The notes beneath the pieces are model-generated. The model was given only the letters and a program-made list of their open reading frames with translations. It did no database searches and was not told the origin of the DNA. Shown here piece after piece: positions 13,404 through 60,432 of a stretch of DNA of 64,000 nt (positions are counted from its first letter, which is position 1; the number at the start of each line of letters is the position of its first letter). The DNA comes from Alphaproteobacteria bacterium (GTDB lineage: Bacteria; Pseudomonadota; Alphaproteobacteria; RF32; CAG-239), in NCBI GenBank assembly GCA_045221335.1, contig JBGUWS010000014.1, forward strand, positions 70,261 through 134,260, given 5' to 3'. The position numbers were made by a program, and so were the translations under genes.

Positions 13404-16400
13404 ATGTGTAAGTATCGTCGTTCTGAAATAGGTTTGTTAAACAGAAGATATCGCAGTGTATTAAAAAAATGCCTGCTGATTAATTGCGGATTGCTCCTTG
13501 TTTCGTCTCCTGTACAAGCTGAAGTATTACCGGTTTTAGGCGATAGCAGTGTAGTTGAATATCAACTGGGTAGCGAAGATGATTACACGTTCAAACTTAT
13601 CGAAAATGGTGTCACCACGTATTATAAGATAAATATTTTAACCGACCTGCTGGATAGCAACCATATTTTGTGGGATAAGGTAGCATCCGCTGGTGAAAAT
13701 ACAATAGGTATAACTCTGCCGCATAATGGTACCGGCACAGAAACGATGTACTTAAAATACTCATATGATGGTAGTGAATGGGGAGCAAGTGTCAGTAACT
13801 TTAAGGATAATACAGTTAGAGCAGCAGCTACGGCTTCCTCTTATACACCCGATAATCCTTTTCCTTTAACTGGTATAACAGATACACAAAAGAAAGTCCT
13901 ATCAGGATTGTACACATATGATAATAAGGTTTACGAAGGAAACTATGTAACCCCGATTGTGCGTCAAAATAGAAGCGGTGGTACAATTTATGCTGCGTTG
14001 TATGGAACAGCACTAAGCAACGTAGTAAATCCAAATAATGAAACTGATTTACATAAAGATCTTGGTGATCTAACTGCTGATTTTATTAATAACTATGTGG
14101 ATGCGGTATCCACAAATTTATCAAGTACAGGTGCAGTTGTCAAGGTGGGTTCATCCTCTAATCTATACATATACGGTGGAGCAGCAGGTAACCCCGGTGC
14201 GATTACGGTGCCATCCGGCGGTGATTTAATAACATCTGATCCTAGTTCTATTCAAAGCTTAACAGGAGAATTTATTGGGAACTATATTACCGGAACGGCC
14301 ATTGTTGCAGATGATGATACAGCAACTTCATTACTGGGAGCTTATGGCGGAGCTCTGGGTAATAGAGGAATAATCGGAACCATTACCGGCTCTTTTATAA
14401 ATAACTACATTGATGTAACAGCAACCGGCGATGGAGCTACAGCCTATGGCTTTGGTGGTGCAGTTTATAACCATGGCACAATCACAACACTTAATGCCAA
14501 TTTCTTATCAAATTATGCAGATCATGGTGGTGCAATTTATAATGATGGAGAAATCACCACCTTATCAGGTAATTTTATTGGTAATAGGGCAACCAACGGA
14601 AATGGTGGCGCAATACATGGTGCCGGCTTTGAAAACATTAATGGTGACTTTATTTCAAATGAAGCCAATGGTAATGGCGGTGCTATCAGTGTAGAGGCTG
14701 AAAACGGCGGGATAATAGAAAATCTACGCGGAGAATTTATAGCCAATCAGGCACTCGATGGTAATGGTGGCGCTTTGTTTATCGGTAATCAATCCGGTGT
14801 TGAACAAGTAACAGGTAATTTTATTGGCAATATAGCAAACTCGGATGGTGGTGCTATCTATATAGAAGACACAGACGAAGCAACGAACATTGTTGCTGAT
14901 ACAGCAGATGTTCTGTTTAGTAATAATACAGCTAATGACAGATATAATGATATCTATCTAAAAGATGTTGAAAATTTCGGATTAAACGCAGCATCAAACC
15001 ATACCATTACATTTAATGGTACAATCGAAGGCGAGACCACTTCAGATACTGTTTTTGCCAATATCAATAGAGGTTCATCAAATACCGGTGGAACTTACGC
15101 TTTTAATAACGAAGTTTCAGGTTTAGGACTGCGTGTTTACAATGGTGCACAAATTAAATTAGGTGTTCATGAGCAGTCAGATGGGACAACAACCGATGGA
15201 TATCTCAATTTGGAAAGTTTTGAAAATGATGCCCAAGGCGGTGAAATCGATGCTATAAACGGAGTATACCGCACGCAGATTTTGGGTAGCAATGTGAAAT
15301 TATTATCAGACTTGGATTATAAAATTGATATTTTAGTTGAAAATAATCTGGTAACCATTTCTGATATGATACAAATTGCATCAACAGACCAGGATTCCGT
15401 TGGTTCCATCAATTTGACAGATATTTTATTTGCCGGTGCATCAGAGGGTGAAGCACTTTATTTTGAAGGCAAGAAACAGATTATCAATAATACCGGTAGC
15501 AATGCTGTTACGCTAAAATTAGCTCAAGAATACACGGCCACAGCTGAAAGCCTTGTAACCGATAAGCTATCTATTGATTCTAAGGATATAAATTGGGATA
15601 CAGGTGTTTATCTCTATGATGAAAGGACTGTAGATTCTAAAAAGTTGGTAGCTGTCGAAGGAGAAAGCGGAATTGTTGACAGCATTGAATGGGTAGACAA
15701 TGGTTCCTTAAGCCCGACAGAAGAAAATATCCGCAATTATGATGCCTTAGTATTCTTGCATCAGACGGATATGTTTGGTACCAATGAAAAGACATTCACG
15801 GATAATTCAACCGGAACCTATAACTTAACAGAAAATCTTGGAGAAACTTATGGCTCTCTATCTGTTATAGGACAAGGTGCAGATGCATCAACATTGAATA
15901 TGAACGGTCATCAAGGTTTTGAAATTGGTGACGGGGCAACCGTAAAATTAGACGGTATATCGGTTAATAGTAATAAAGCCGTGACCTTAGCAGAAGTATC
16001 TGAAGGCGGCTTGCTAAAATTGAATAATGTAGAAATTGCAAGCCCGAAACTGTTTATAACCAATGATGAAAATTTAGAACTAAGCGGTTCTAATACACTT
16101 AATGGTATGATAGATGGTGAGGGAACAACAACAGTTACCGGCGGAGAAACAACCCTAAATGCAGATATCATTCAAGATAATTTGATTATTGCTGACGGTA
16201 CATTAATAACCAATGCAGATAATCTGGAAATTGCTAATGATATTCAAAATGACGGAACATTAACACTAACCGGTGGTAATTTAAGTCAAGGTGTTACCAA
16301 AGCAACAACCGGTGAAGGTGAAGTAACATTAGAAAATAATGTTGTTTTAGCTAATGGTGGTTCTATTTCTGATAATAAATTGGATCTCAAAGATCATAAA

Positions 16401-42400: not shown

Positions 42401-45400
42401 AATAGTAACCAATACGATAGATGGGGGTATAATTTATAACCAATCACAAATTAATTCTATTTCAGGAAAGATTATAAATAATTACATTGAATCTAAAAAT
42501 GCCACATTAAACGGGGGCGTATTATTTAATGATGCGTCTGGTAATATCTTAATGACATCGGATATAGAAAATAACTATGTCAAAGGGGCGGATATTACAA
42601 ACTCTGATGGTGGAATAATTTATAATAGTGGAACATTAACGCTTTCCGATGTTTCTCTTAAAGATAATGCAACAAATTTAGAAAACACAATTTCAAACAG
42701 TGGCAATCTTTCTATAATTGCGAATAATAAGGATGTCGTATTTGCCGGAAACAAAGTCGGTGCAACCATTACTAGAAACGAAACAACAGGAGAAGTTTCC
42801 GTTACGGGTGGAGATGCTTTAGATATAAGAAACAGTGGTAGCAGTGTGCTGAACTTATTTGCTAAAACAGGAAAATCGATAATTTTTGAAGGTGCAATTA
42901 CTGACGATGATAATCAAGCAACAGCAAATATTGGCGGAACATACGATGATAATGGAACAGAAAAAAATTATGAAGGTTCAGTAATATTTAAAAATACAGT
43001 CGCTCTCTCAACATTAAACATCAAAAATAATGCAAATATAATATTAGGAGTGAATGGCACACAATTTGGTTTATTGAATTTAGGAACTTTAACCAATGAT
43101 GCAAAAAATGGATCGATTAATAGTATAAATAATCATATTGAAAATCACCAAATAACGAAAGCCACATTAAATTCAGCCTTAAATATAGGAATAGATATGA
43201 GTGTGGCAACCGATCTAACAACAGAAGCGGATACATTTACTTTAGGTGCGGATAGCACGGGTACATTTAATATCGCAGATCTAAATATGCTCGGGGATGG
43301 TATAGCTGCTTTTAAGGCCTCCACAGAATCTAAAGAAATCATACAGAAAATATTAAATAATGCAAACAGCAACACCATATTAACTCTTTCTAATACGGTT
43401 AAATCCGCTTATGAAGAAGAAATAGCCGATGAACTTGTAGAAGACGTTGATGAAATTACTGGATCAACCGTTAAATATAATGAAAAGTATGGAGAATATG
43501 AACTTACACGTCAAAGAGCGTTGGAAGTATCAATTGTCGGTTCATCACAAGGATTGGCTGATGCAATCAGATGGGCAATAACAGTAACCGATAGTGATAA
43601 AATATATAAAGACGATACTTTGCATCTGATAAATATTGCATCAGGTACAAATAGGGTATTCGATTTTGATGGTACGACAAACACCTTTAATGTAACGGAA
43701 AATACAGGCACAACAGCTGTTGGTAAATTAACAATATTAGGTACGCAAAATGGTACTGCGTACTCAACAATAGATGCTGACGGGCACAGTTTGTTTGATA
43801 TAACGACCTCAGGGGCAGCCGTTGATATACAGAATACAAAAATTAAAAATGCAGAATACATAGCTGATGTCACAAGTGGTAATGTATTGACTTTAAGTAA
43901 CGTGATTATTGATAATACAAATACCAAAGGTATAACCGGAACAGGAACAACGGTCATATCAGGCGGTAAAACGGTATTAAGTGCAGAATCCAACCAAAAT
44001 TTATTGACAATTAATTCAAATGGTGAGCTAGAAAACAATGCAAAGTTCACATTAGCAGATAAAATTTCAAATTCAGGTACACTGACTTCAATTGCCGATA
44101 ATATAGTAACGGAAAATGGTATAGAAAATGAAGGAGTAATAAACTTTATCGGGGGAGAGAATTTAAATAATATCAGTGGTACAAACGGAACAGTTAATTT
44201 TTCTGATACATCAATAAATTCAGGAACAATAGAACAAAAAATAATCACTAATAGCAACAGTTTGACATCTGATGCCGGAACCTTGAAAGCATCAGCAGGC
44301 ATCCAAAATACAGGGAATTTATATCTGACAGGTGGTATAACACAGAGTATAATTTCAGGCGAAAATGGAACTATACATACCATGGGATCAGTAACAATTG
44401 GAAAAGCCATAAATAACAATGTGTTAAGTCTAGATAGTGGAAGTACAAAATTAGGTATAACAGATCTTTCAACAGCCCAAAAATTAGTCATAAACGGGGG
44501 AGATTTAAATCTACAGTATTTATCAAGTACAGAAGATTATAATTTAGGAAACGTTGAAATCTTGGAAGATATGGGACTGGGTATTGATGTCGATTTAACA
44601 GGAAACACCGCAATAAAGAAAGTTGATACAATATCTGCAACAACAGTTTCTGGCTCTAAAAAAATATATATCAATAACTTAAATATAACGGTTCCTAGTC
44701 CCGGAGATGAAGCCCCAACATATTCAAAAGTTGCAGATAATAATCTAAAAGACAGTGTAGATTTAGGCGATAATGCCAAAACACACGTTAACAATATATC
44801 ACAAAATGGTTTTATGATAACTTATGAAAAAGATACAGAAGGAGAAAATACGGGTGGTTTCTTACATCTGACCTACGCGGATCTGGTAACGGCAGCTCGT
44901 GCAACAACAAGATCAAGAATATATGTTATGGGCAGTGCTGATGAGGATGTTGTCAGCCAGTTAGACGAACAGGGTGGAACAGGAATAACAGATAATAATC
45001 ATTTGTTTGGAGGTGTATCTTTAAGTGTAAACGGTACAGGCATTCAATCAATAATTGGTAGTGGTACGACCGGTGGAATACAGTTAGCTGGAACACAAAC
45101 TTTAAGCTTAAATAACATTAAAGAATACACAGGGTTCTCAACGGGTATTACCAATTATGGTACGGTTAATGTCACAAATGTTGATTTTATTGGAAATACA
45201 ATAGATATAAATAATAATACAGTACTTAATTTGTATGGAACAGATGAGCTAAAAACAATAACAGGAGATACCGGTACAATTAATATTGCAAGTTATGTTG
45301 ATGGAGATAATCAAACCATTAATGCAGAAGTAACTTTTGCCACAGACGGAAATATTACTCAAAAAGATATAGTTATTGCAGAGAATAACGTCTTAGAAAA

Positions 45401-48400
45401 TAATGCTAATCTGACAATCTTAAATAAAATTTCCAATAATGGTACCATAACTTCAAAAGCAAATAACATAAGCACCACAAATGGTATTATAAATAATGGT
45501 ATACTCAATTTAACTGGCGGAGAGAACACAAATGCAATAACTGGTACAGATGGCGTTATTTACCTAACTAATACCGGAAGTAACAGTGCCTCAATTACCC
45601 AAAACAGTATAATTAATTCCGGAACATATACAAATAACGGTACAATCAATGGGTTATTTGATAATAGTAATGCAACGTTAGAAAATAATAGTGAAATTAG
45701 TTTAATAACCATGGATGGAGGTAACTTAAATAACGGCACAAACGGTACCATCCTGGCAACAGACTTAATCAGTGGTAATGTAATTAATGCCGGTTCTATA
45801 AACAACACCGGTCGCATGATAATAGAAAGCAGTGACACCTATACAAATACCGGCTATATTGCTAATTCCGGCGATTTAACAATTAAAGGAACAAAAGAAA
45901 TCGGACAGATTACAGGATTAGGGGACTCAACAACAGGAAATATTGTTTTGGGAGATACCTCGACAGATATTTCGACAGTTAACAAAGATATTGCTCAGCA
46001 AACAATAACCTTAAATAATGGAACGCTCAAATTTGCTGCCACAGGTTCTTTAACAGATAATGTTGCATTTATTGGTAACAACGGTACTTTGGATACTCAA
46101 AATAGCACAATAAATACAATATCTCTTGGTGCGGTCACATTAAATAGTAACATTATGTGGGCAATAGACGCTGATTTAGCAAATATGACAGCAGATAATG
46201 TAACCGGCAACGCAAATCCATCCGGTTCAGGAAAATTAGTAATTAATGCAATAAACCTTCTTTCGGACGGTAATTATAAATATATAGAAACCAAAGTTGC
46301 AGATAATAATCTAAAAGGTATTATTGCGTTAGCTTCAGATCAATTTATTGTTAATAATTTAGCTGGAAACGGAAGTTACCTTGTTACTTATCAAGCAAAA
46401 ACGGATGGTGGATATTTAACCTTTGATAATTCTGATATGAATAACCTTGTTATTGCTGCACGAAAAGAAGGTAGTGTTGTTTACAGTATGTCTCAAAATG
46501 AAAGTATCGAAACAGATTTAGCAGCTATTCCCGACGATATAACAAATGCTATAGGTAACCAAATAGCCGATGATTATACAATTAATGGCAATGGTCATAG
46601 CATTGATGGTGCCAACAAAGGTGGTATAATAACTTCTGCAACACAAGTTTTAACATTAAATAATATTAGTGAAGTTAAAGATTTTTCAGGGAATGCAATT
46701 ACGAATGCAGGTACACTAAATATCAATGCGCAAACAACAGATACAGTATTTAACAGCACAGCAGGCATCAAAAATACGGGAGATTTAATCTTAAATGCCG
46801 CAGAAGGCCAAAAAATAACAATTGCCGGAGCAATAACCGATGACACTGTTACTAAAGGGGTAACAACCGTCAAAGGAGATGGAATTACCAATATAAATAA
46901 TAGTATTACTCAAGATAAATTGCTCATTGAATCAGGCACCGTCAATGTTTCTGCCTCAAATTTGAATATAGATGAGTTCATACAAAATGACAGTATTCTA
47001 AATTTAGATGAAGGAATATTAAGTTCAATCATTAAGGGTAATAATGGAACAACAAATATTGTAGGAGAAGTTACTAATAACGCGTCAATCACTCAAAATG
47101 AAATAACTATTGAGGAGACTGCCAAACTGACGACCAATGCCAGTGATATAACCAGTGTAAGCGGTATAGATAACAACGGTACATTAGAGTGGATAGGTTC
47201 AGGAGAAAACAACAATATTATTTTAAGCAGCAATAATGAGGGTATAATAGAAGTTAAAGGCACTGTTCAAAATAATCAAAGCGTGACGCAAAATAAGATT
47301 ATAATAGCCGGTAACAATGCGGAACTAATTTCTAATGCTGATAATTTAAGTACGATTGAGGGAATTGAAAATAACAGTCTTTTAACTTTAACAGGCGGTC
47401 AGAATACCAATAAAATTGATGGTACAGGTAAGCTTGTTATTAAGACAGATAATCAAGTAGAAAATGAAGCGTTGATAAAACAAAAACAAATTACGGTAGA
47501 AGAAGGAACATTGATAAGTGATGTTGCCAATTTAGTAACAACAGAGAATATAAAAGTTTCCGACTTGTTGCGTTTAACCGGAACAGGTGATAATACAAAT
47601 CGAATTATAGGTAACGGTACGACAGAAATTGCGGGAACATTGACAACTTCAAACACAATCAGTTCTAACTTAGCCATTTCAGGAACATTAACAACTTCAG
47701 CTGATAAACTGGATATAGCATCAAAGAGCTTAAAAGGCGCCGGAGGAACATTAGACTTAAGCGTTAATGATAAATATGCAGAGGTGTTAACAGTAAAAGA
47801 GCTTGATCTAAACGAGGGTAATCTTAATTTGATAATAGATGTTGACCTTGCTAACAAGCAAGCTGATCAATTAAATGTAACAAGCATCTCCGGGTCAAAT
47901 AAATTAGTTATAAATGGCTTTAATCTTATAAGTGATGCACAAGAGAATTTACCAATTACAACAACAGTATTAACCGTAAATGACACATCAGAAGCCGAAA
48001 AACTAAGCCAGAATGTAGAGTTACAGGGTGCCCCGGTAACAATCCAAGGTGAAATTCCTGAATATAGCTACCTGGTTTCATATATTGTAAAAGATTTAAC
48101 AGGTAATTTACAATTTGAGTACGCAAATCTGGCAACAGCAATTATTTTTGATGCAGAGCAAAAAGTTTATACAATGGCCAACGAGGAAAGCTTAAGCGAA
48201 GAAAAAGAAATGCAAGGAAAGAATTTAAGCATTTGCGGTAACGGGAACGCCATTACGGGAGACGGAACAAATAACGGTATCAGAATTGGAAATGATCAAA
48301 CATTATCAATTAATGATGTCAACAGTATGCAAGAATTTGATCAAGCCATTGTAAATGATGGTGGTACAGTTAACCTTAAAAATGTAAGTTTCACAAATAA

Positions 48401-50438
48401 CACGGTAGATGTTAATAACAATAGCATATTAAATTTAGAAGGAAATAATGTACTACAAGACGGCATTATCGGAGATAATGGTAAAACAAACATTATTTCA
48501 GGCGAAACAACACTTTCAGGCGAAACAACGCAAGAAACAATTACCGTTTCTGATGCAACATTAAATAATCAAGGAATTATCAGTGCTGCTATCAATAACG
48601 CCGGTACAATTAATAATGAAAACGAACTTAAAATGAACGGCACATCAGTAAATACAGGTAAGATTAGTGGAAATGGCACTTTAACAGTCAATGGAACTCT
48701 AGAAAACACCGAAGATACAGCTTCTATTGTTCAAGATAAAGTACAGATTACGGAAAACGGCGAATTAACATCAGATAATGACAAAATCAGCGCATATATC
48801 GTTAATGACGGTATCTTCAATATGAGCGGTGCGGAAAATAATAATATCGTGGACGGAACAGGAATTGTTAATATTAACTCCAGTATGAGGCTTAATGAAC
48901 AAATAGGAGGAACAAACACGATAAACGTCAATGAAGGTGTATTAACCTTTGCTGATAATGAAGCTTTAGGGAGCAATGTTAAATTAAACGCCAACAAAGG
49001 TAGTTCTATAGACGTCGAAAATAATCAGATGAGCGTAGATCAGGTGGTATTTAAAGAAGGCTCAACCTTAAAATTAAAAGTAAATAGTCTTTCTGATTTT
49101 GGTTCGATTATAGCAAATACAATAAATGTCGAGCAAGGAGCTAATCTGTTTGCTGTTCTAGGGCAGGGATTGATTGAAGTCGGTCAGGAAGGAAGAATTC
49201 AGCTCTTAACAGCTAATAACAGTGATTTTAATAACTTTAGTGACAGTTTTGAAAATAACATGTACCGTTTTGAAAAAGACGGCAAAAATGGTGCATACAT
49301 CATTTCACAAGCCAGAACAGCAGAGGATGTCCTAAAAGAAGCAAATGCCAACAAGGATATTGTTGGTGCTGGACACGCTTGGATAGATGGTTCTCAGTTC
49401 CCGGATGAAAATAGTCAGGAAGTTGCAGATAAACTAACAGAATTAGCACAGACAGATGCCCATAAGCTTATAAAGGCATTAAAAGGTCTTGCACCTAACG
49501 ATGCCCCGATAGTAAAAACCTTAGCAATTGAACGGGCCTCTTATCTGTCAGATATGTTGCAAAATCATATTTATAACCGTTCAGAAGAACAATCCGCACA
49601 AGGTCTCTCATCTAATATTTCAGCACTGGATGCATCAGTTTGGATAAAGACATATGCCGCACGTTCTACCATAGCAGCAGACGATAATGCCGGAGGATTT
49701 AATATCAACCGCCAGGGAGCCGTATTAGGCATAGATAAGAAGGTAAATTCAGATACCTTAGTCGGTATGGGTTATGGTGCGGATACAACAAAAGCAAAAT
49801 CACATGATCACAATGATAAGGTACAAACCCATAGTTTGTTTGCTTATACGCGATATAAGCCAAATGATTGGTACATGGAAAGCTTAGCGGCATACAGCCA
49901 ATCTCAATATAATGAAACAAAGCAAAGTGTTTCAACCATCCGTGCAAAATATGATGTAAAAGACCTATTCTTTAAGGTAGATAACGGTTATGAGTTTAAT
50001 ATAAAAGATGCAATTATAACACCGGAATTGAGCTTAAGATATCATTATATAAAACGAGACGGATATAAAGATAGTGCAGGCCAAAAAGTTGATGCAAATA
50101 ATCTACAGGTCTTCACACCTGTGGTCGGTGTAAAAGCTTCTACAGAATTTGAGATAGATGAAAATAAACTCTCAAGGAAAGCAACCGTAAGGCCGGAAGT
50201 TTATGTTGGGGCAGGATATGATGTCAAATCAGATAATGAAAACTCCTTTGTAAGCTTGCCTAACGGAGAATCTTACGTTTATCATGGCAATCAATTAGAT
50301 AAGTTCTTTATAGAAACAAAAGCCGGTGTCAAAGCAAGTTTCACGGATGATGTTGACGTAGGTCTCTGGTATCTTGGAAATTACCGCGGAAATTACCAAT
50401 CTCACGCAGGAATGGTCGAGCTGAAAGTAAGATTTTAA
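39432..50438 (+). CDS. Giant type Va autotransporter (3668 aa) with Pmp/POMP repeats, reiterated ~38-aa and ~130-aa passenger modules, and C-terminal beta-barrel
   Basis: Signal peptide (LLLGVLANVSYTYA). Many FxxN/GGAI-type repeats and periodic (I/L)SG(D/N)I(S/T)NN...YGG(I/M)IYN units. Four copies of a ~130-aa DVDL... module. C-terminal ~300 aa paralogous to the first autotransporter's translocator, ending ...VELKVRF. Confidence 0.85.
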   Translation: MMKVKYKKVFKLTLLLGVLANVSYTYAAEQYVDDYNSLIAAISGAQDGDIIILNNSIEVTGALSSINKNITIDGQGLYGIYSSSLGGFTVSAGKNVTFKNIGQATVNLETGEVTYVEHSGLQGFHKSYTAALRNNGTLTLDNVVFYGNDGANGHGRAMYNSSSGTILSIKGKFLNNTNGSGTLANYGNIAYVKADFVGNSGGQHGGAILNNKGAKIQEIRDSNFIANSSARSGGAIRNLDGANEVTIYDSLFRFNNSRQGGAIKNSDESKAIIYNSLFDRNYAIYDSPDSPAASRPGGGAISNTDGKVYITDSQFTNNAAENNGGAILSDGLLYIYAKEKDVEFKNNKSLATISNAGANATVSGGVYNDLYLLKNAEINANAGKNIIFNGSVVNAVNTVVLSLNNDASIQGGNYIFNNEVTNGIFNIYNGAAVKFGTYNQVDGSVSYGKLNGVSFSNDTKGGTIDFQNNHIDDQVLTDLTLNSDIDIKLDVDLVNGISDYFSANTYTGNGKLNIVGINILSDNPIDLATKVSNSVLKDAITLSIATVDGPSLSYSILYDTSQNDGGYLRFSSGEMTNLVIVNRAEAKHRFYSLGSDENIAADIAEIGDGSTSIGEMGGVTGTIFTINGNSDYSINGENYAEITVKSGKTLNVDNVGSLEANGDVKAAWQGFKGTLFSVSSGTLNFTGDNVIANNTAIDKESLISNNGGTITVSDGSLNILNNSYHASLINNTNGTIGDFNTLIKSNLVNTGTGSLYGLIYNNAGSGKTAKIGELSGEISNNVITNSNGNLYGGIIYNYSKGTAEIDKITALFQGNQISTSALYGGLIRNQAEGGAVKIGDITGDIKENTLAFKNDTYGAIISNKATTKNAEIGNISGNITNNTINMSGNKSLYGIIQNEGNSGGTAKILGISGDISNNSINGNNNNSLLGGMIYNCAKSANAEIGEISGDIKNNSFKMGSMEGSIISNKNTSGYDAIIDAISGNIEENMIIVTNTIDGGIIYNQSQINSISGKIINNYIESKNATLNGGVLFNDASGNILMTSDIENNYVKGADITNSDGGIIYNSGTLTLSDVSLKDNATNLENTISNSGNLSIIANNKDVVFAGNKVGATITRNETTGEVSVTGGDALDIRNSGSSVLNLFAKTGKSIIFEGAITDDDNQATANIGGTYDDNGTEKNYEGSVIFKNTVALSTLNIKNNANIILGVNGTQFGLLNLGTLTNDAKNGSINSINNHIENHQITKATLNSALNIGIDMSVATDLTTEADTFTLGADSTGTFNIADLNMLGDGIAAFKASTESKEIIQKILNNANSNTILTLSNTVKSAYEEEIADELVEDVDEITGSTVKYNEKYGEYELTRQRALEVSIVGSSQGLADAIRWAITVTDSDKIYKDDTLHLINIASGTNRVFDFDGTTNTFNVTENTGTTAVGKLTILGTQNGTAYSTIDADGHSLFDITTSGAAVDIQNTKIKNAEYIADVTSGNVLTLSNVIIDNTNTKGITGTGTTVISGGKTVLSAESNQNLLTINSNGELENNAKFTLADKISNSGTLTSIADNIVTENGIENEGVINFIGGENLNNISGTNGTVNFSDTSINSGTIEQKIITNSNSLTSDAGTLKASAGIQNTGNLYLTGGITQSIISGENGTIHTMGSVTIGKAINNNVLSLDSGSTKLGITDLSTAQKLVINGGDLNLQYLSSTEDYNLGNVEILEDMGLGIDVDLTGNTAIKKVDTISATTVSGSKKIYINNLNITVPSPGDEAPTYSKVADNNLKDSVDLGDNAKTHVNNISQNGFMITYEKDTEGENTGGFLHLTYADLVTAARATTRSRIYVMGSADEDVVSQLDEQGGTGITDNNHLFGGVSLSVNGTGIQSIIGSGTTGGIQLAGTQTLSLNNIKEYTGFSTGITNYGTVNVTNVDFIGNTIDINNNTVLNLYGTDELKTITGDTGTINIASYVDGDNQTINAEVTFATDGNITQKDIVIAENNVLENNANLTILNKISNNGTITSKANNISTTNGIINNGILNLTGGENTNAITGTDGVIYLTNTGSNSASITQNSIINSGTYTNNGTINGLFDNSNATLENNSEISLITMDGGNLNNGTNGTILATDLISGNVINAGSINNTGRMIIESSDTYTNTGYIANSGDLTIKGTKEIGQITGLGDSTTGNIVLGDTSTDISTVNKDIAQQTITLNNGTLKFAATGSLTDNVAFIGNNGTLDTQNSTINTISLGAVTLNSNIMWAIDADLANMTADNVTGNANPSGSGKLVINAINLLSDGNYKYIETKVADNNLKGIIALASDQFIVNNLAGNGSYLVTYQAKTDGGYLTFDNSDMNNLVIAARKEGSVVYSMSQNESIETDLAAIPDDITNAIGNQIADDYTINGNGHSIDGANKGGIITSATQVLTLNNISEVKDFSGNAITNAGTLNINAQTTDTVFNSTAGIKNTGDLILNAAEGQKITIAGAITDDTVTKGVTTVKGDGITNINNSITQDKLLIESGTVNVSASNLNIDEFIQNDSILNLDEGILSSIIKGNNGTTNIVGEVTNNASITQNEITIEETAKLTTNASDITSVSGIDNNGTLEWIGSGENNNIILSSNNEGIIEVKGTVQNNQSVTQNKIIIAGNNAELISNADNLSTIEGIENNSLLTLTGGQNTNKIDGTGKLVIKTDNQVENEALIKQKQITVEEGTLISDVANLVTTENIKVSDLLRLTGTGDNTNRIIGNGTTEIAGTLTTSNTISSNLAISGTLTTSADKLDIASKSLKGAGGTLDLSVNDKYAEVLTVKELDLNEGNLNLIIDVDLANKQADQLNVTSISGSNKLVINGFNLISDAQENLPITTTVLTVNDTSEAEKLSQNVELQGAPVTIQGEIPEYSYLVSYIVKDLTGNLQFEYANLATAIIFDAEQKVYTMANEESLSEEKEMQGKNLSICGNGNAITGDGTNNGIRIGNDQTLSINDVNSMQEFDQAIVNDGGTVNLKNVSFTNNTVDVNNNSILNLEGNNVLQDGIIGDNGKTNIISGETTLSGETTQETITVSDATLNNQGIISAAINNAGTINNENELKMNGTSVNTGKISGNGTLTVNGTLENTEDTASIVQDKVQITENGELTSDNDKISAYIVNDGIFNMSGAENNNIVDGTGIVNINSSMRLNEQIGGTNTINVNEGVLTFADNEALGSNVKLNANKGSSIDVENNQMSVDQVVFKEGSTLKLKVNSLSDFGSIIANTINVEQGANLFAVLGQGLIEVGQEGRIQLLTANNSDFNNFSDSFENNMYRFEKDGKNGAYIISQARTAEDVLKEANANKDIVGAGHAWIDGSQFPDENSQEVADKLTELAQTDAHKLIKALKGLAPNDAPIVKTLAIERASYLSDMLQNHIYNRSEEQSAQGLSSNISALDASVWIKTYAARSTIAADDNAGGFNINRQGAVLGIDKKVNSDTLVGMGYGADTTKAKSHDHNDKVQTHSLFAYTRYKPNDWYMESLAAYSQSQYNETKQSVSTIRAKYDVKDLFFKVDNGYEFNIKDAIITPELSLRYHYIKRDGYKDSAGQKVDANNLQVFTPVVGVKASTEFEIDENKLSRKATVRPEVYVGAGYDVKSDNENSFVSLPNGESYVYHGNQLDKFFIETKAGVKASFTDDVDVGLWYLGNYRGNYQSHAGMVELKVRF

Positions 50439-53674: not shown

Positions 53675-53722
53675 AAAATATAACAAAAAAACGCCATTTC
53701 TGACGATTTTTGAACTGTGGTC

Positions 53723-53807
53723 GGAGTGAGCTTGCAGTTCTCGAGATAAAATTTTGCATGTTTTTAACTTATGGGTGTTAAGAACCAGAGGTGGAATTAA
53801 AATCAGC
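53723..53807. repeat. Copy R3 of the ~85-bp repeat family
   Basis: ggagtgagcttgcagttctcgagataaaattttgcatgtttttaacttatgggtgttaagaaccagaggtggaattaaaatcagc. Confidence 0.55.
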
Positions 53808-53872: not shown

Positions 53873-54571
53873 ATGACATTAAATAAATTAGATATTCTTT
53901 CTAAAATGGCATATTTTGCAAAATGCAAAAAAACAGCTATAGTACGTATATTAGAATTTCTCATACCACTAAATGACGAACAATCTGTATTGATGAATAT
54001 TTTTTATAATGCCTATTTTACTTACTGGTTAGGGTTAGTAGATTATTTGATAAAAGATGTTTCTTTTATTAAGCAAGAAGATATAGAAAATATAGTAGGT
54101 TCTAAAGATAATTATTATTACCTTAGAAATCTAAGAAATGCGGTTATTCATAGGGCTGAGGACTTAGCTGATAAAGGAACTGTTATTAATAATACAGATA
54201 TTATAACCCCATTTTCTCCTATAGATGTTATGGATCCATTTGGAAAGAAAAAATACCAACCATTTTATAACAATTTAATACAAATCATATTAAAATGTGA
54301 AGAGATAAATGAAATATGCATAAAATTGATAAAACAATATAATTTGACAGATTATCCTGATCTTACTAAAGAAGAATTTATGGATAGGTGTAATCGTGAT
54401 CCTTATATTTCATCGTATGTAAAAACGGATGAAATATCCGAAAAATCTTGGCAACATTATTATAGCATTAAAAATGATATGAAAAAAGAAAATGTAAAAA
54501 AGATTTTATCTTATTTTGAAACTCTTAATTTATTTCAAGATGCGATAATAAAAGATAATAAGATAGATTAA
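53873..54571 (+). CDS. Hypothetical protein with Rx4H (HEPN-like) motif, candidate Abi-type RNase
   Basis: 232 aa, predicted all-helical, ~26% GC. Motif YYYLRNLRNAVIHRAED fits HEPN Rx4-6H. A paralogous motif occurs in the 248-aa protein at 60432. No other recognisable domain. Confidence 0.4.
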   Translation: MTLNKLDILSKMAYFAKCKKTAIVRILEFLIPLNDEQSVLMNIFYNAYFTYWLGLVDYLIKDVSFIKQEDIENIVGSKDNYYYLRNLRNAVIHRAEDLADKGTVINNTDIITPFSPIDVMDPFGKKKYQPFYNNLIQIILKCEEINEICIKLIKQYNLTDYPDLTKEEFMDRCNRDPYISSYVKTDEISEKSWQHYYSIKNDMKKENVKKILSYFETLNLFQDAIIKDNKID

Positions 54572-54806
54572 ATATTAGCAATAATTTTGGAGTGACTAAA
54601 ATCAAAGGCTAATTTAACTTTTATTTTTCGATAATAGAAGTTTTTCTTCCCTGTATAAGCGATTTTGGTTTTGACATAGGTTTGATTATAAAAGATAGAT
54701 TCGGTTATTATAGGGTAATTTTTGATAAGTTAATAATCGTATGAATTTATTATTTCTAAACTATTGGTGTTTTATTATATCGTAGTTTAATGGAGTGATT
54801 TATCTT

Positions 54807-55919
54807 ATGAAACCAGATATACAAAAAATATTTAGCCAATATGGAATAACCAATAAAATGCATAACGATGCATATGATTGGCAGAAAAAATATTGGGAAA
54901 TTAGTAATGAGATAAGTGGTAAGAATGAATGGGAGGACATTTGTATTGGATTTTTCGCTTATATTACACTATGGACGTTAATATTGTTTGGTTTAGCATT
55001 TCTTGATGATAAATCAAATATTTCTCAAGACTTGCTTGCTTTCCTTATTATTGTAGTTTTATTAAATATATTTTTCTACTTAATGGGAAAGCAAGAAAAT
55101 AAGAAAAAAGAAGAATATAAACATAAAATAGAAAGCCATAAATTAGAAAAAGTTCACCATTCTGAATATGAATACAAAGAACAGAAACTAGCAAGCGATT
55201 ATGAAACTGAATTAAAAAATCTTCAAAGTAAAATATTTAGAAAAAGAGTTAGTGAAACATTTAAGGATAATTTACAAAAATATAATGATTTCATAGATAC
55301 CTGTAGTTATATAAACCATTATCTTGTATTTGCTCACATAAATACTTATGAACATAGAGAATACGCTAAAAAACGAGGTTATTCTCTTGTTACAAATAAT
55401 TATTCTTCTTTAAGTAAAAAAATACTTCCTAAAATTGAAGAAGATTATTCTTCATCTAAGCCTATAGAAAGCAAAAGTATTAAAAGTAAATTTAATCCTC
55501 AAAAAATAGATTGGCTTGAACTTAATAAATCTAATGCCAAATTAGGAGAATATGGGGAAAGCATAATTATAGATTTGGAAAAGGAATATCTGATAGAAAA
55601 CGGATTAAAAGATTTATCTGAAAAAATAGAATGGGTATCACAGACCAAAGGGGACGGAGCAGGATATGATATTTTATCATATGATACAGGCGGAAATTGT
55701 AAATATATAGAAGTTAAAACTACATGTGTGTCGGAAAACGAACCTTTTTATGTAAGTGATAATGAATTGAATTTTATTAAAACACATTTGGATAATTATT
55801 TTATATATCGTTTGTATATCGATAAAAATTCCAATACAGTAAAATTGAGAGTATTTAATTCAAGCGAATTTTTAAACTTTGCTCTTCGTCCTGTATCGTA
55901 TAAAGTTATTTTAAATTAA
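54807..55919 (+). CDS. Membrane-anchored protein with C-terminal DUF3883-like PD-(D/E)xK nuclease domain
   Basis: Two N-terminal TM helices, a K/E-rich coiled-coil linker, and a C-terminal ~130 aa with LGEYGESI, GYDILSYD, IEVKTT and SDNELNFIK. These match, as I recall it, the DUF3883 restriction-endonuclease-like consensus (D...E-V-K). Start moved to ATG 54807 (GGAG RBS). Confidence 0.55.
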   Translation: MKPDIQKIFSQYGITNKMHNDAYDWQKKYWEISNEISGKNEWEDICIGFFAYITLWTLILFGLAFLDDKSNISQDLLAFLIIVVLLNIFFYLMGKQENKKKEEYKHKIESHKLEKVHHSEYEYKEQKLASDYETELKNLQSKIFRKRVSETFKDNLQKYNDFIDTCSYINHYLVFAHINTYEHREYAKKRGYSLVTNNYSSLSKKILPKIEEDYSSSKPIESKSIKSKFNPQKIDWLELNKSNAKLGEYGESIIIDLEKEYLIENGLKDLSEKIEWVSQTKGDGAGYDILSYDTGGNCKYIEVKTTCVSENEPFYVSDNELNFIKTHLDNYFIYRLYIDKNSNTVKLRVFNSSEFLNFALRPVSYKVILN

Positions 55920-56183
55920 CAAATAAAATTTTAGTGCTGTAATCTATAACTCCTTGATTTTCTTATCTTCTCATCCTAAAAAGTTCGAAGATTATTTGGG
56001 GTATGGCTTATTTTATATCAAACATTCGAACTCGCCGAAAGCTATTCCGCATCCGGAAAAGATTTCCAAAGTAACGCATAAACCACTAGAGGTGCCCTTT
56101 GTATATCCCTTAGTATTTGCGCGACTAAATTTGAGATAAGCTTATCTAACACTAGTGTTATTATTGTGTCGGCTCCATACTTT

Positions 56184-56203
56184 AAGGCTTAGAGCCTTTT
56201 TTA
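56184..56203 (+). terminator. Short hairpin + T-run (aaggct-tag-agcctttttt) upstream of fic
   Basis: 6-bp stem followed by T6. It shares the 19-nt string agagccttttttatgaaaa with the terminator after fic. Confidence 0.4.
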
Positions 56204-56295
56204 TGAAAAAAATGTCAATATTCGGGAAATTTTACTTGCTTTTTCGGGAATTATTCGGTAATATTTCGGTAAAGAATAGAGAAAAGGAACATAAA

Positions 56296-57354
56296 ATGCC
56301 CAATATGACAGATATTATAATTACCCCGGATATGCTAAAGAAAATAGCAGAAATAGATGCTTTTAACGGAGCATTCAATAGCGGCGGTATAAAGATTAAG
56401 CCGGAGCAATTAAAAGCCATGAAACGCATTGCTACGATTGAATCTATCGGCTCTTCTAATCGTATTGAGGGCAATAAGCTAAACGATACAGAGGTGGAAG
56501 AAGTCTTTAACCGTATCAGCAAAAAATCTTTTCAAACGCGCGATGAGCAAGAAGTTGCCGGTTATGCCGATTTGCTTTCAACGATTTTTGAAAATTACAA
56601 AGAAATAAATTTATCGGAAAACTACATTCGGCAGTTGCATAAAATTTTGCTTTCATATTCTGACAAAGACGAGCATCATCGCGGCGAATATAAAAAAGAT
56701 TCAAATCGCGTGGCAGCCTTTGATGCCAACGGTAAAGAAATCGGCACGATTTTTGAAACAGCCACGCCGTTTGATACACCGCGTTTAATGCAAGAGCTTG
56801 TTAATTGGACGAACATCAATTTTAACGATGGCTACTTCCACCCGATTATCACTATCGGCGTGTTTGTGGTGCATTTTTTATCAATACACCCTTTTACCGA
56901 CGGAAACGGTAGAATGTCACGTGCATTAACGACCTTGCTTATGCTACAACATGGCTATAATTATATGCCTTATTCATCATTGGAATCAATTATTGAAGCC
57001 AGTAAAGATGCGTATTACAGAGCTCTGCGCGCTACGCAAAAGACAATCTGGAGCGATAAGGTAAATTATGAGCCGTGGCTGACATTTTTTATTACCTCAC
57101 TTGCTAAGCAAAAACGGCATTTAGAAGATAAAATTGCCTTTGCCACTAAAACCGATAATACCAGAATTACCAAAGGCGAGCAAGCCGTTTTAGACCTTTT
57201 TGAAGATAAGACAAATTGGTCGGTGGCAGAAATGGCGGAAACTTTAAGTAAAAACAGTGAGACCGTCAAAAAGACCGTGCAAAATTTAGTAAAGAAAAAT
57301 ATGCTTGAAAAACAAGGCTCCACCAAGGGCACATACTACATTTTGAAGGGGTAA
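56296..57354 (+). CDS. Fic/DOC family protein, class II (N-terminal inhibitory SxxxEG helix) with C-terminal winged-helix domain
   Basis: Canonical Fic motif HPFTDGNGRMSRAL. Upstream inhibitory-helix motif SSNRIEGN, i.e. (S/T)xxxE(G/N). C-terminal ~90 aa wHTH-like. Start chosen at MPNMTD (AAGGAA RBS) rather than the ORF-track 56155. Confidence 0.8.
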   Translation: MPNMTDIIITPDMLKKIAEIDAFNGAFNSGGIKIKPEQLKAMKRIATIESIGSSNRIEGNKLNDTEVEEVFNRISKKSFQTRDEQEVAGYADLLSTIFENYKEINLSENYIRQLHKILLSYSDKDEHHRGEYKKDSNRVAAFDANGKEIGTIFETATPFDTPRLMQELVNWTNINFNDGYFHPIITIGVFVVHFLSIHPFTDGNGRMSRALTTLLMLQHGYNYMPYSSLESIIEASKDAYYRALRATQKTIWSDKVNYEPWLTFFITSLAKQKRHLEDKIAFATKTDNTRITKGEQAVLDLFEDKTNWSVAEMAETLSKNSETVKKTVQNLVKKNMLEKQGSTKGTYYILKG

Positions 57355-57377: not shown

Positions 57378-57410
57378 GGCTCTATGTCTTATTGCATAGA
57401 GCCTTTTTTA
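57378..57410 (+). terminator. Rho-independent terminator after fic (ggctctatg-tcttattg-catagagcc + T6)
   Basis: Perfect 9-bp stem and a T-run. Confidence 0.75.
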
Positions 57411-57500
57411 TGAAAATTGGTAAATAAGCTCAATTATCACTTGCTTTTCAGAGTGTTTAGGGTAAAATCGCCATTATATTGTAACTTTTGGGACTTTTAG

Positions 57501-59987
57501 ATGACGATAACACCGGAAGAAAAAGCAAGAGAAAAAATAGATGAACAACTGATAAATGCCGGTTGGATAATACAGAACCGTGAGGATTTTGACCGCACAG
57601 CTAGTTTAGGCGTGGCTGTTCGCGAGTTTTTGATGGACGATAACACAGAAGCTGACTATCTTTTGTTTGTAGATGGCAAAGCCTGCGGTGTTATAGAAGC
57701 AAAGAAAGCCGGTGTTGCTTTAAGTGGTGTTGAAAATCAGTCGCACGGATATGCTTGTCATCTACCGGAATATGTTAAAAATTGGCAGATGCCGTTGCCT
57801 TTTATTTACGAGAGCACTGGTGATGAGACTTTCTTTTGTGACGGGCGAGATAAAATCTGCCGTTCTCGTCGCATTTTTGCCTTTCACTCACCTCAATCAT
57901 TGCTAAATATGCTTGAAGAGGCAAGCACTTTGCGCAATCGCTTACAAAATATGCCTATACTGGAAAAAGGCTCTTTGCGTGATTGTCAATTTGAAGCCAT
58001 TGAAGGCTTAGAAAAATCATTAGCGGAAGGCAATCAAAAAGCACTTATTCAAATGGCTACCGGTGCCGGAAAAACTTTTACGGCTTGTAATTTTTCATAT
58101 CGCTTGCTTAAATATGCCGGAGCGAAGCGTATTTTATTCTTGGTAGACCGCAATAATCTCGGCAAACAGACCAAAAAAGAGTTTGAAAACTTTCGCCTTC
58201 CTGATGTAAATCGCCTGTTTCCGGAAGTTTATATTGCTCAGCACTTGCAACATAATAAGGTTGATTCTGATGCCAAAGTTGTGATTACCACCATTCAACG
58301 GCTTTATTCCATGTTGTGCGGTGAAGAAGATTATGATGAGGCGGACGAAGATGCTTCCGCTTACGAGCTCGGTTCAATGGGTGCGCCTAAAGAAGTTAAT
58401 TATAATTCTGCTCTTCCGCCGGATTATTTCGATTTTATCATAACTGATGAATGTCACCGCAGTATTTACGGCGATTGGCGGCAGGTTTTGGAATATTTTG
58501 ATGCTTTCATTATCGGTTTGACAGCTACGCCATCTAAGCAAACCTTTGGTTATTTTAACCGCAACATTGTTGCTGAATATCCGTATGAACGCTCGGTTGC
58601 TGATGGTGTTAATGTAGATTATCAGGTTTTACGCATTAAAACCAAAATCAGCGAAGATGGTGGCAAAATTGACAAATCTTTTCCTGTGCCATTGCGTAAT
58701 AAGAAAAGCCGTAAGATAACTTATGAGCAGCTGGACGAAGATTTAGAGTATAAAAAGAATGACTTAGACCGTTCTGTCCTCGTGCCAAATCAAATTCGCA
58801 CCATTATGGAGTGTTATAAAAATTCGCTTTATACCGAGCTGTTTCCGGAACGTGAGCCGAATTTTGCGTGGACACCGAAAACGCTTATTTTTGCCAAAGA
58901 TGACAATCATGCCGAAGAGATTGTCCGCATCACAAGAGAAGTTTTCGGGCAAGGCAATGATTTTTGCAAAAAGATTACCTATAACGTTACCGGTGAAAAG
59001 CCGGAAGAACTGATTAAGCAGTTTCGTGTTTCCCCTCTGCCGCGTATTGCCGTAACGGTGGATATGATTGCCACCGGCACGGATATTAAGCCTTTGGAAG
59101 TGGTAATGTTTTTGCGTGATGTTCGCTCATCGCTTTATTATGAGCAGATGAAAGGTCGTGGCGTTCGTTCCATTAATGATACAGACTTAAAGCAGGTAAC
59201 ACCGAATGCCGAAGGTAAAAGTTTCTTTTATTTGATTGATGCCGTTGGTGTAACCGAGAGTAAAAAGACCGCTTCACAACCATTGGAGCGCAAACGCTCG
59301 GTTTCGTTAAAGAAGCTTTTAGAGCAAGTAGCACAAGGCAAAACTGATGATGACACATTGAGCACGCTTGCCGGACGCATTGTCAATATAGAGCGCAACT
59401 TAAATGACGAAGAAAAAGACAAGATAAAAGCTCTAACCGGAGGCAAGCTGTTGCATGAAATTGCCGGCAATATTCTTGATGCCATAGAGCCGGACAAGCT
59501 TGAGGGCAAAACCGCCAAAGAGATAGAAAAAATCAAAGATGATGCGGTTAAACCGTTTAATAAATCAAGTTTGCGGCAAACTTTGCTTGATATGAGTGCC
59601 AAAACCGGCATTTACATTGATGAACTGGCGCAAGATGAAGTTATTTCTGCGGATATCAACGGAGAAAAAGCTAAAAATATCATCACTTCGTTTAAGGAAT
59701 TTATAGAAGCCAATAAAGATGAAATTGACGCACTTTCTATCATTTATAATGTGCAATATGGCAAGAGAAACCTGACTTATGCCAATATCCGTGAACTGGC
59801 AGAAAAAATGCGTGAGGCACGTCCGCCTTTGGCACCGATAGAAATTTGGCGTGCGTTTGAGCTATTAGAAAAAGATAAAGTCCAACATGTTAAAAATCCG
59901 GTGCGGTTGCTGACCAACTTGGTGCAACTGGTGCGTTTTGCCATCGGGCAAGATGATAAATTGGAAGAGTTTGATAAACGAGTTTAA
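57501..59987 (+). CDS. hsdR: Type I restriction enzyme R subunit (N-terminal PD-(D/E)xK nuclease + SF2 helicase + HsdR-type C-terminal helical region), possibly 3'-truncated
   Basis: HSDR_N-like D...EAK (DYLLFVDGKACGVIEAKK). Helicase motifs I QMATGAGKTFTA, II ITDECHRS, III GLTATP, VI QMKGRGVRS. The stop lies exactly where out-of-frame hsdM-homologous sequence begins. Confidence 0.75.
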   Translation: MTITPEEKAREKIDEQLINAGWIIQNREDFDRTASLGVAVREFLMDDNTEADYLLFVDGKACGVIEAKKAGVALSGVENQSHGYACHLPEYVKNWQMPLPFIYESTGDETFFCDGRDKICRSRRIFAFHSPQSLLNMLEEASTLRNRLQNMPILEKGSLRDCQFEAIEGLEKSLAEGNQKALIQMATGAGKTFTACNFSYRLLKYAGAKRILFLVDRNNLGKQTKKEFENFRLPDVNRLFPEVYIAQHLQHNKVDSDAKVVITTIQRLYSMLCGEEDYDEADEDASAYELGSMGAPKEVNYNSALPPDYFDFIITDECHRSIYGDWRQVLEYFDAFIIGLTATPSKQTFGYFNRNIVAEYPYERSVADGVNVDYQVLRIKTKISEDGGKIDKSFPVPLRNKKSRKITYEQLDEDLEYKKNDLDRSVLVPNQIRTIMECYKNSLYTELFPEREPNFAWTPKTLIFAKDDNHAEEIVRITREVFGQGNDFCKKITYNVTGEKPEELIKQFRVSPLPRIAVTVDMIATGTDIKPLEVVMFLRDVRSSLYYEQMKGRGVRSINDTDLKQVTPNAEGKSFFYLIDAVGVTESKKTASQPLERKRSVSLKKLLEQVAQGKTDDDTLSTLAGRIVNIERNLNDEEKDKIKALTGGKLLHEIAGNILDAIEPDKLEGKTAKEIEKIKDDAVKPFNKSSLRQTLLDMSAKTGIYIDELAQDEVISADINGEKAKNIITSFKEFIEANKDEIDALSIIYNVQYGKRNLTYANIRELAEKMREARPPLAPIEIWRAFELLEKDKVQHVKNPVRLLTNLVQLVRFAIGQDDKLEEFDKRV

Positions 59988-60432
59988 TCTGCATACGGTG
60001 TTGCGCTTGCCTACCGGTATTTTTTATGCGCAGGGTGTTAAGGCTAATGTTATTTTCTTTGATAAATATCCGCCACTTGATAAAGGACACCGCACAAATG
60101 ATGTGTGGTTCTATGACTTACGCACCAATATTAATTTAAGCTTGGTTACAAACTCTTTGAATGACAGCCATTTAGCAGACTTTATTAAGTGCTATAATGC
60201 AGATAATATTATGGCGAGGACAGAGAGCGAACGCTTTAAGAAGTTTACTTATGACGAAATTATCAAACGCGATAAGGTAAGCCTTGATATTACTTGGCTC
60301 AAAGACGAGAGTTTAGAGAGTCTTGAAAATCTGCCGGAACCGGAAATTTTGGCAGATGAAATCGTTGATAATCTGGAAACAGCACTGGATTCATTCAAAA
60401 ACGTGCTGACAGAGTTACAGAAAGCAGAGTAA
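59938..60432 (+). pseudogene. hsdM: Remnant of type I methyltransferase gene: C-terminal ~150 codons only, N-terminal catalytic domain deleted
   Basis: The translation from ~59980 (NLHTVLRLPTGIFYAQGVKANVIFFDK...VWFYDLRTN...SLDITWLKD...LPEPEILADE) closely matches the C-terminal region of EcoKI-type HsdM as I recall it. No SAM-binding or NPPY/F region is present upstream. Confidence 0.7.

Follow-up and report, generated by a model that had tools for sequence, protein, structure and literature searches.

The 64-kb stretch of alphaproteobacterial DNA analysed here (contig JBGUWS010000014.1; hereafter the window) contains an island of restriction- and defence-related genes whose two outermost open reading frames (ORFs), designated A and B, encode proteins of 232 and 248 amino acids (aa) sharing the motif [FY][IL]RNLRNxxxH. 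A prediction made from the DNA alone had described them as divergent paralogs that look all-helical, fit the Rx4-6H motif of HEPN RNases and flank the island. Their positions, lengths and motifs are as originally described, and both proteins are indeed predicted to be almost entirely helical. They represent two separate families in which the arginine and the histidine of the motif core are invariant, and every named member of either family is annotated as 'hypothetical protein'.

53873..54571, + strand: ORF A, 232 aa, member of an unannotated HEPN-like family
54119..54151, + strand: motif YLRNLRNAVIH of ORF A, aa 83-93; predicted catalytic core R88-N89-x3-H93, then R94
60432..61178, + strand: ORF B, 248 aa, from a second HEPN-like family, likewise unannotated; start codon overlapping the hsdM stop
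60762..60794, + strand: motif FIRNLRNYQTH of ORF B, aa 111-121; predicted catalytic core R116-N117-Y-Q-T-H121, where helix 107-121 ends

The motif occupies 36-40% of the length of A and 45-49% of that of B. When all six frames of the window were searched, the full pattern was matched exactly twice, in ORFs A and B, and it did not appear in any of 200 codon shuffles; RNLRN was likewise found twice, as compared with 0.125 expected occurrences. The minimal pattern RN...H occurs 10 times against an expectation of 11.9, that is, at chance frequency. Alone it is therefore meaningless in the window, and the weight of the motif must come from its conservation in homologs.

Motif conservation and HEPN signatures

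Close homologs of ORF A fall into 9 clusters among 5.8 billion sequences, and when the A alignment was used for an exhaustive profile search, 99 representatives (clusters at 50% identity) were recovered, nearly all of 200-260 aa. In the deep alignment of this family (84 sequences, mean column identity 24%), R88 and H93 are invariant (100%), while Y83, L87, N89, R94 and P116 are each conserved in at least 90% of 84-89 sequences (94% for N89). For ORF B, 8 clusters of close homologs were found in the same collection and 41 clusters by a profile search, with identities down to 28%; across the 34 sequences of the deep B-family alignment, which span the same range of identity, R116, N117, Y118, Q119 and H121 are all invariant. 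The first arginine of RNLRN, R112 in B, is not conserved in the B family, where R, H, K, Q or N is found. Accordingly, the identity of A and B over 11 residues is partly coincidental, and the functional core of the motif is [LF]RNxxxH.

HEPN domains were defined following Anantharaman et al. (2013; PMC3710099) and Pfam clan CL0291. Their core is formed by two alpha-hairpins, helices 2 and 3 being separated by an insert that varies. The conserved motif is Rx4-6H, its arginine directly followed by a polar residue (N, D or H), and helix 2 often contributes an acidic residue within Ex3[KR] (PMC3710099). The arginine followed by a polar residue is present in both A (R88-N89-x3-H93) and B (R116-N117-x3-H121), and the invariance of R and H in the 84 and 34 sequences bears out the proposed fit to the HEPN motif. 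The acidic residue of helix 2 is likewise present in both proteins. Position 57 of the A family is D or E in 81 of the 84 sequences, the subfamily of the window reading D57-x3-K61; position 77 of the B family is D or E in 29 of 34, with K or R at +4 in 25 of 34. Both positions lie in the second long helix of the respective models.

The AlphaFold model of ORF B (predicted local distance difference test score, pLDDT, 91.5; predicted template modelling score, pTM, 0.88) displays helices at residues 11-45 and 51-86, a short insert helix at 90-104 and a helix at 107-121 that ends exactly at H121 and is followed by a long loop. This order of helices agrees with the HEPN topology described in PMC3710099, the closest structures to B are HEPN toxins, and B is very probably a HEPN-fold protein. 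The AlphaFold2 model of ORF A (pLDDT 77.3, falling below 50 at residues 95-117) shows the same order of elements as that of B, and fold searches with it returned non-specific matches. A is probably a HEPN-fold protein as well, as argued by its sequence signatures, sub-threshold matches to HEPN families of Pfam and gene context more than by its structure.

None of the models in Pfam, NCBIfam, PADLOC and PHROGs was matched significantly by A, B or members of their families. Direct scans of the two proteins against these collections and against PDB sequences returned noise only (SF3b10, PPP1R21, globin, oligopeptidase B), and scans of PADLOC and PHROGs with the family consensus sequences gave no usable match. 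When the A-family consensus was compared with 24,736 Pfam models, the best two were HEPN_RiboL-PSP (E 0.0077) and DUF4145 (E 0.069), whose alignments both cross the motif region and whose scores lie below the cut-off (16.6 bits versus 28.4 and 13.6 bits versus 23.1, respectively). Individual members of the A family gave sub-threshold matches to DUF4145 (5 members), Cthe_2314 (3), pEK499_p136 (3) and RiboL-PSP (2), and members of the B family to Apea (2) and pEK499_p136 (1), the E-values for Cthe_2314, pEK499_p136 and Apea ranging from 5e-4 to 0.03. To judge from these profile scores, the sub-threshold matches are enriched for HEPN families; neither A nor B belongs to an existing curated family.

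The relationship between A and B themselves is far more distant than paralogy would imply. BLASTP aligned only the 12-residue motif (E 0.092), and hhalign with shallow profiles returned a probability of 6.5% over 26 columns. With the deep profiles (84 + 34 sequences) the probability rose to 46% (P 2.1e-4) over 95 of ~240 columns, the alignment spanning the motif helix and the helix before it, as compared with 6.2% in global mode and with P-values of 0.21-0.28 for reversed-profile controls. When the 13 motif columns were deleted from both alignments, a signal of P 0.022 remained, with its register over helix 2 unchanged. Restricting the comparison to the N-terminal halves gave P 0.0019, while no profile signal was found between the C-terminal halves (P 0.24), and cross searches with hidden Markov models (HMMs) reached at most 12.5 bits. 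Tested as a single family, A and B showed no significant pairwise or profile-profile similarity over most of their length. On these comparisons they are not paralogs in the ordinary sense, but they may share a very remote common ancestry in their N-terminal 100-120 residues; the description of the two as divergent paralogs thus holds in the weak sense of a possible common descent within the HEPN superfamily.

Neither A nor B is a phage or plasmid family. IMG/VR contains 4 loci for the A family and none for the B family, and tblastn searches of 72,556 plasmids gave no match to the A-family consensus and one weak match to the B-family consensus. A protein of 2131 aa (P0058) matches the A-family profile in 12 separate stretches, the best of which covers profile positions 132-206. 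These matches may reflect a repeat protein built on the C-terminal portion of the A fold or be an artefact of low complexity.

Gene contexts in the window and in other genomes

Homologous loci in other genomes are designated by L numbers. The context of A was inspected at 8 loci with at least 35% identity, 6 of which place the gene in a Type I restriction-modification (R-M) operon, 0-11 nt downstream of hsdS or of the gene that comes next (L002, L004, L015-L018):

L002: hsdM-167aa-hsdS-A-DUF3800
L004: hsdS-A
L015: hsdM-TPR-hsdS-A-hsdR
L016 and L017: hsdM-hsdS-A-Fic-hsdR
L018: hsdM-...-hsdS-...-A-hsdR
L001: A homolog after YjiT/YjiV-like genes

Between the window and L016/L017, where the Fic gene directly follows the A homolog, the Fic proteins share 51.6% identity, which means that the order A-Fic-hsdR of the window, broken there by a NOV_C gene of 25% G+C content (GC), recurs in Gastranaerophilales. 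The hsdR genes of L016/L017 and of the window belong to different families (23% identity). Pairing of A with the downstream NOV_C gene was rejected, since the gene after the A homolog of L001 is unrelated and the distant loci have no recurrent neighbour.

The B family is unusually promiscuous in its upstream partners, and stand-alone copies occur in recombinase-bearing elements:

L056-L059: B after hsdM with start/stop overlap; the window's own lineage
L005: B downstream of a ResIII helicase; the operon also includes N6_N4 methylase, AbiTii and Abi_alpha
L064-66: B after a Type IIG restriction-methylase fusion, 12-nt gap
L061-63: B after an OLD/AriA-like ATPase, 20-nt gap
L060: B flanked by Mrr and an Abi-P2 reverse transcriptase

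In L056, a near-identical, intact locus (95% identity to the window) of a metagenome-assembled genome (MAG) of gut Alphaproteobacteria, the genes are arranged as hsdR-279aa-TPR-hsdS-154aa-59aa-hsdM-B. B is thus the last gene, after hsdM, and does not occupy the position between hsdM and hsdS that had been considered typical. A and B were found together in none of the 66 other loci, and the idea that they act as a pair was discarded on this ground. No nucleotidyltransferase gene was seen beside either gene, be it in the window or among the neighbours that were called or clustered at 70 related loci, part of which were scanned against Pfam.

Several of the B loci have a composition of their own. 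In L005 (696-9643) a Type III-like series, N6_N4 methylase-AbiTii-Abi_alpha-418aa-ResIII helicase, is followed by B and then by an unannotated 248-aa gene. In L061-L063 (5136-7666) a module made up of an OLD/AriA/GajA-like ATPase (614 aa) and B adjoins a large serine recombinase in three genomic backgrounds; this arrangement is reminiscent of the ATPase-plus-effector pairs of PARIS or Gabija type, the effector here being HEPN-like. In L060 (9001-11338) a gap of 29 nt separates B from a downstream reverse transcriptase of the Abi-P2 type (PADLOC E 1.5e-193); the surrounding island further encodes Mrr, a Ser/Thr kinase and a Fic protein, as well as a Dcm-type methylase accompanied by an HNH gene.

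In the window, the island reads A, NOV_C protein, SoFic-like Fic gene, EcoEI-type hsdR, hsdM fragment and B. The features other than A and B are as follows:

54795..55919, + strand: NOV_C protein, 374 aa; hydrophobic, predicted membrane-spanning N-terminal part and C-terminal NOV_C domain
56296..57354, + strand: Fic/DOC-family gene, SoFic-like; likely start M48 of the listed ORF
57501..59987, + strand: hsdR of EcoEI/EcoAI type, 3'-truncated by a deletion; EcoEI_R_C matched only at positions 2-88 of 163
59969..59978, no strand: deletion junction with ~10 bp overlap, from blastn of the window versus L056
59938..60432, + strand: hsdM C-terminal remnant; matches a Type I methyltransferase profile (487 positions) over 321-480 only
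61425..61499, - strand: tRNA-Gln(ttg), right-hand landmark of the island, its 3' end facing the island

The hsdR gene is 95.6% identical to that of L056 up to window position 59978. From there ~5.5 kb of L056 (3006-8537) are missing in the window, from hsdR codon ~826 to the last third of hsdM; the deletion took out the 279-aa gene, the TPR gene, hsdS and the two small ORFs, and the Type I system of the window is therefore dead. The remaining hsdM ORF (59938-60432) ends in GCAGAGTAATGGTT, its TAA stop sharing one base with the ATG of B, and this stop/start overlap, seen in the sequence GAGTAATGG, agrees with the TAATG coupling originally reported. The hsdM gene of L056 (8534-9001) is interrupted by an in-frame premature stop (..PPLDK*HRTND..), whereas that of L058 has an intact frame ending at the start of B. 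Two genomes thus seem to have lost the function of the same Type I system independently, with B left intact, a sequencing or assembly error being possible in L056.

In the window, both genes are orphaned, A having no restriction partner and B adjoining the hsdM remnant. The ratio of nonsynonymous to synonymous substitution rates (dN/dS) of ORF B is 0.115 versus L056 and 0.14-0.20 versus more distant homologs, that of ORF A is 0.14-0.38 (0.205 versus L001), and that of the hsdM remnant is 0.056. Both A and B are under purifying selection. Intact and selected as they are, the orphans suggest that these genes are tolerated, and perhaps functional, without a working restriction partner. A terminator-like site was not found between hsdR and B, while a strong one follows the Fic gene; B is therefore probably still co-transcribed with the truncated hsdR. 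A sigma-70 promoter scan gave background level only.

The island is a compositional mosaic abutting tRNA-Gln, with a GC of 0.25 at 54-56 kb and ~0.40 at 57-60 kb. The NOV_C gene and ORF A lie in a segment of only 25% GC, as compared with ~35% for the window, and the NOV_C gene, which stands outside the conserved context of the A family, accordingly looks like a separate recent acquisition. Its product matches PDC-S36 (E 4e-40) and PD-T4-1 (E 5e-22) of PADLOC and, over residues 47-167, weakly resembles membrane-protein families. The Fic gene forms an insertion of ~1.17 kb upstream of hsdR relative to L056, flanked by a duplicated segment of ~40 bp (about 56170-56209 and 57378-57417) that holds a terminator-like hairpin (strong copy 57378-57403, partial copy 56184-56198). 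A search of the window for an attachment-type direct repeat of the 3' end of tRNA-Gln that might bound the island revealed none of at least 12 nt. A and B do flank the island by position, as had been claimed, but the two families were not found together at the 66 other loci.

Two further observations concern the surroundings of ORF A. Short intergenic repeats bracket this ORF together with an upstream gene for a 165-aa secreted protein (53675-53752, 53029-53073/53742-53787, 54626-54693), and copies that are 76-87% identical occur at at least three intergenic sites of the L056 island (11052-11120, 15586-15630, 17476-17521, 15893-15963). These repeats may serve as terminator or REP-like elements or mark the boundaries of cassettes. 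Immediately to the left of the island (39432-50438) lies an ORF of 3668 aa which, by the look of its translation only, encodes an autotransporter-type repeat protein, in which a signal-like sequence at the N-terminus and long repeats rich in Asn, Gly and Thr precede a beta-barrel-like C-terminal part.

Comparison with known HEPN systems

Links to R-M systems are known for at least 16 HEPN clades, and a 'three-level defence' of R-M, HEPN and DOC proteins has been described (PMC3710099). The R-M-linked HEPN families, such as DUF4145/PF13643, ApeA, pEK499_p136 and Cthe_2314, resemble A and B in being small and helical, in having Rx4H with N after the arginine and an acidic residue in helix 2, and in their placement in R-M operons, sometimes together with Fic/DOC toxins (PMC3710099). 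Together with the Pfam family RiboL-PSP-HEPN/PF18735 they account for the only recurrent sub-threshold matches of A and B. However, A and B stay below the Pfam gathering score of these families (at best 16.6 bits versus 28.4), the C-terminal halves of both proteins (~110-130 aa) match nothing, and neither is fused to a restriction endonuclease, a helicase or the ApeA N-terminal domain.

HepT and other HEPN toxins of the HEPN-MNT type (PDB 8xdj, 5yep, 7ae2) differ from A and B in having an adjoining MNT nucleotidyltransferase antitoxin. The HepT motif also carries an HxY extension, which is absent from both proteins, the residues at the motif histidine being HRA in A and HFE in B. Moreover, A and B are ~100 residues longer than HepT, owing to an extra helical C-terminal region, and share no sequence similarity with it (7-13% identity).

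PrrC-EcoprrI and RloC represent anticodon nucleases, HEPN RNases whose genes, like the operon-embedded A and B homologs, are inserted in Type I hsd operons and which are proposed to become active only once restriction has been disabled. Fic/DOC genes are found in RloC-type loci as well (PMC3710099), and the same three components are present in the window and in L016/L017, namely A, a Fic gene and hsdR. In contrast to PrrC and RloC, which contain a fused N-terminal ABC-type ATPase domain, A (232 aa) and B (248 aa) are devoid of any ATPase domain, although in L061-63 B follows a separate OLD/AriA-like ATPase. Unlike a toxin strictly silenced by the restriction complex, as envisaged for PrrC and RloC, B persists beside inactivated hsdM genes.

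Possible roles of A and B

With moderate confidence, we consider A and B to be two separate families of the HEPN superfamily that are carried as rider genes on restriction and defence systems and serve as an RNase backup. Each protein would possess a metal-independent RNase site, predicted to consist of R-N-x3-H at the end of core helix 3 and of the acidic residue in helix 2. As accessory genes located 3' of restriction or defence genes and co-expressed with restriction enzymes, they would provide a second line of defence in which RNA cleavage of the abortive-infection type backs up DNA restriction. Such a role was proposed for R-M-linked HEPN genes by Anantharaman et al. (2013), by analogy with PrrC-EcoprrI (PMC3710099), and the operon placement of A and B matches the published embedding of HEPN clades in R-M operons, sometimes with Fic/DOC genes (PMC3710099). 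According to this analogy, the effector would remain latent as long as the restriction complex is intact and be released once a phage disables the complex, a scheme that is attractive for the operon-embedded copies.

Several observations weigh against the rider-gene hypothesis. None of the HEPN models of Pfam, NCBIfam or PADLOC reaches its curated threshold, and sequence-profile searches of the PDB with both family alignments gave no match. The distant members of the A family (~25% identity, mainly from Proteobacteria) have variable neighbours and no recurrent partner. Finally, B is intact beside a destroyed system in the window and beside a prematurely stopped hsdM in L056. Since a toxin held by a restriction complex should kill once the complex is lost, the survival of B disfavours a strict dependence of the PrrC type, and it suggests that B is regulated autonomously or has a low intrinsic toxicity. 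It is tentatively conceivable that B, and perhaps A, represents a new class of portable plug-in HEPN effectors which stay functional and non-toxic after their partner has been destroyed, the partners being mechanistically unrelated, namely Type I, Type IIG and ResIII-type systems, the OLD/AriA-like ATPase and the Abi-P2 reverse transcriptase. This would imply intrinsic phage-sensing or self-inhibition, located in the C-terminal region of ~120 residues that matches nothing known.

Alternatively, A and B may be HEPN toxins of unrecognized toxin-antitoxin or stand-alone abortive-infection modules, their proximity to restriction genes reflecting the clustering of genes in defence islands. The stand-alone copies of B in recombinase-bearing elements, the variable neighbours of the distant A members, the conservation of both genes as orphans in the window and the structural proximity of B to HEPN toxins would be consistent with this explanation. 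We nevertheless regard it as unlikely. In unrelated lineages and with unrelated partners, the gene repeatedly lies only 0-20 nt behind the restriction gene that precedes it or overlaps the stop codon of that gene with its start, which points to co-expression, and no conserved small partner gene that might encode an antitoxin was found adjoining either family. It appears likewise unlikely that the two proteins are non-catalytic helical subunits of restriction systems, accessory or regulatory, which contribute for example to assembly, specificity or anti-anti-restriction and in which R-N-x3-H is a binding or structural motif. Indeed, the four partners of B (Type I, Type IIG, ResIII helicase and OLD-like ATPase) are mechanistically different, B also occurs alone in mobile elements, orphan copies are still under purifying selection, and the conserved residues coincide precisely with the catalytic triplet of HEPN proteins and the acidic residue of helix 2.

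A chance match of the motif in AT-rich, Asn/Lys-rich sequence, which would make A and B unrelated helical proteins without shared chemistry, is highly improbable. Some of the data do lean this way: the BLASTP alignment is not significant, RN...H occurs at chance frequency and the first arginine of RNLRN varies in the B family. At curated thresholds, the results also come close to the outcome that the original prediction had named as a sign of chance, that is, no significant profile similarity of the two proteins to each other or to any HEPN family. However, chance is already contradicted by the conservation within the families, R and H being invariant over 84 and 34 diverged homologs. In addition, the full pattern did not arise in the shuffles, the profile signal between A and B outlasts masking of the motif in the same register, and both families have sub-threshold matches to several HEPN families.

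The concept of a layered defence combining HEPN, R-M and Fic/DOC proteins was already proposed in 2013, and A and B extend this known idea. What is new here are two HEPN-like families not catalogued in Pfam, NCBIfam, PADLOC or PHROGs, to which we attribute a putative RNase activity from their sequences. If confirmed, they would add two more uncatalogued families to the HEPN RNases riding on restriction systems, and would provide two markers for the defence annotation of gut MAGs (Alphaproteobacteria, Gastranaerophilales and Elusimicrobia) and of many Proteobacteria. The orphaned, conserved copies offer a natural test of the dependence of R-M-linked HEPN proteins on their restriction partner.
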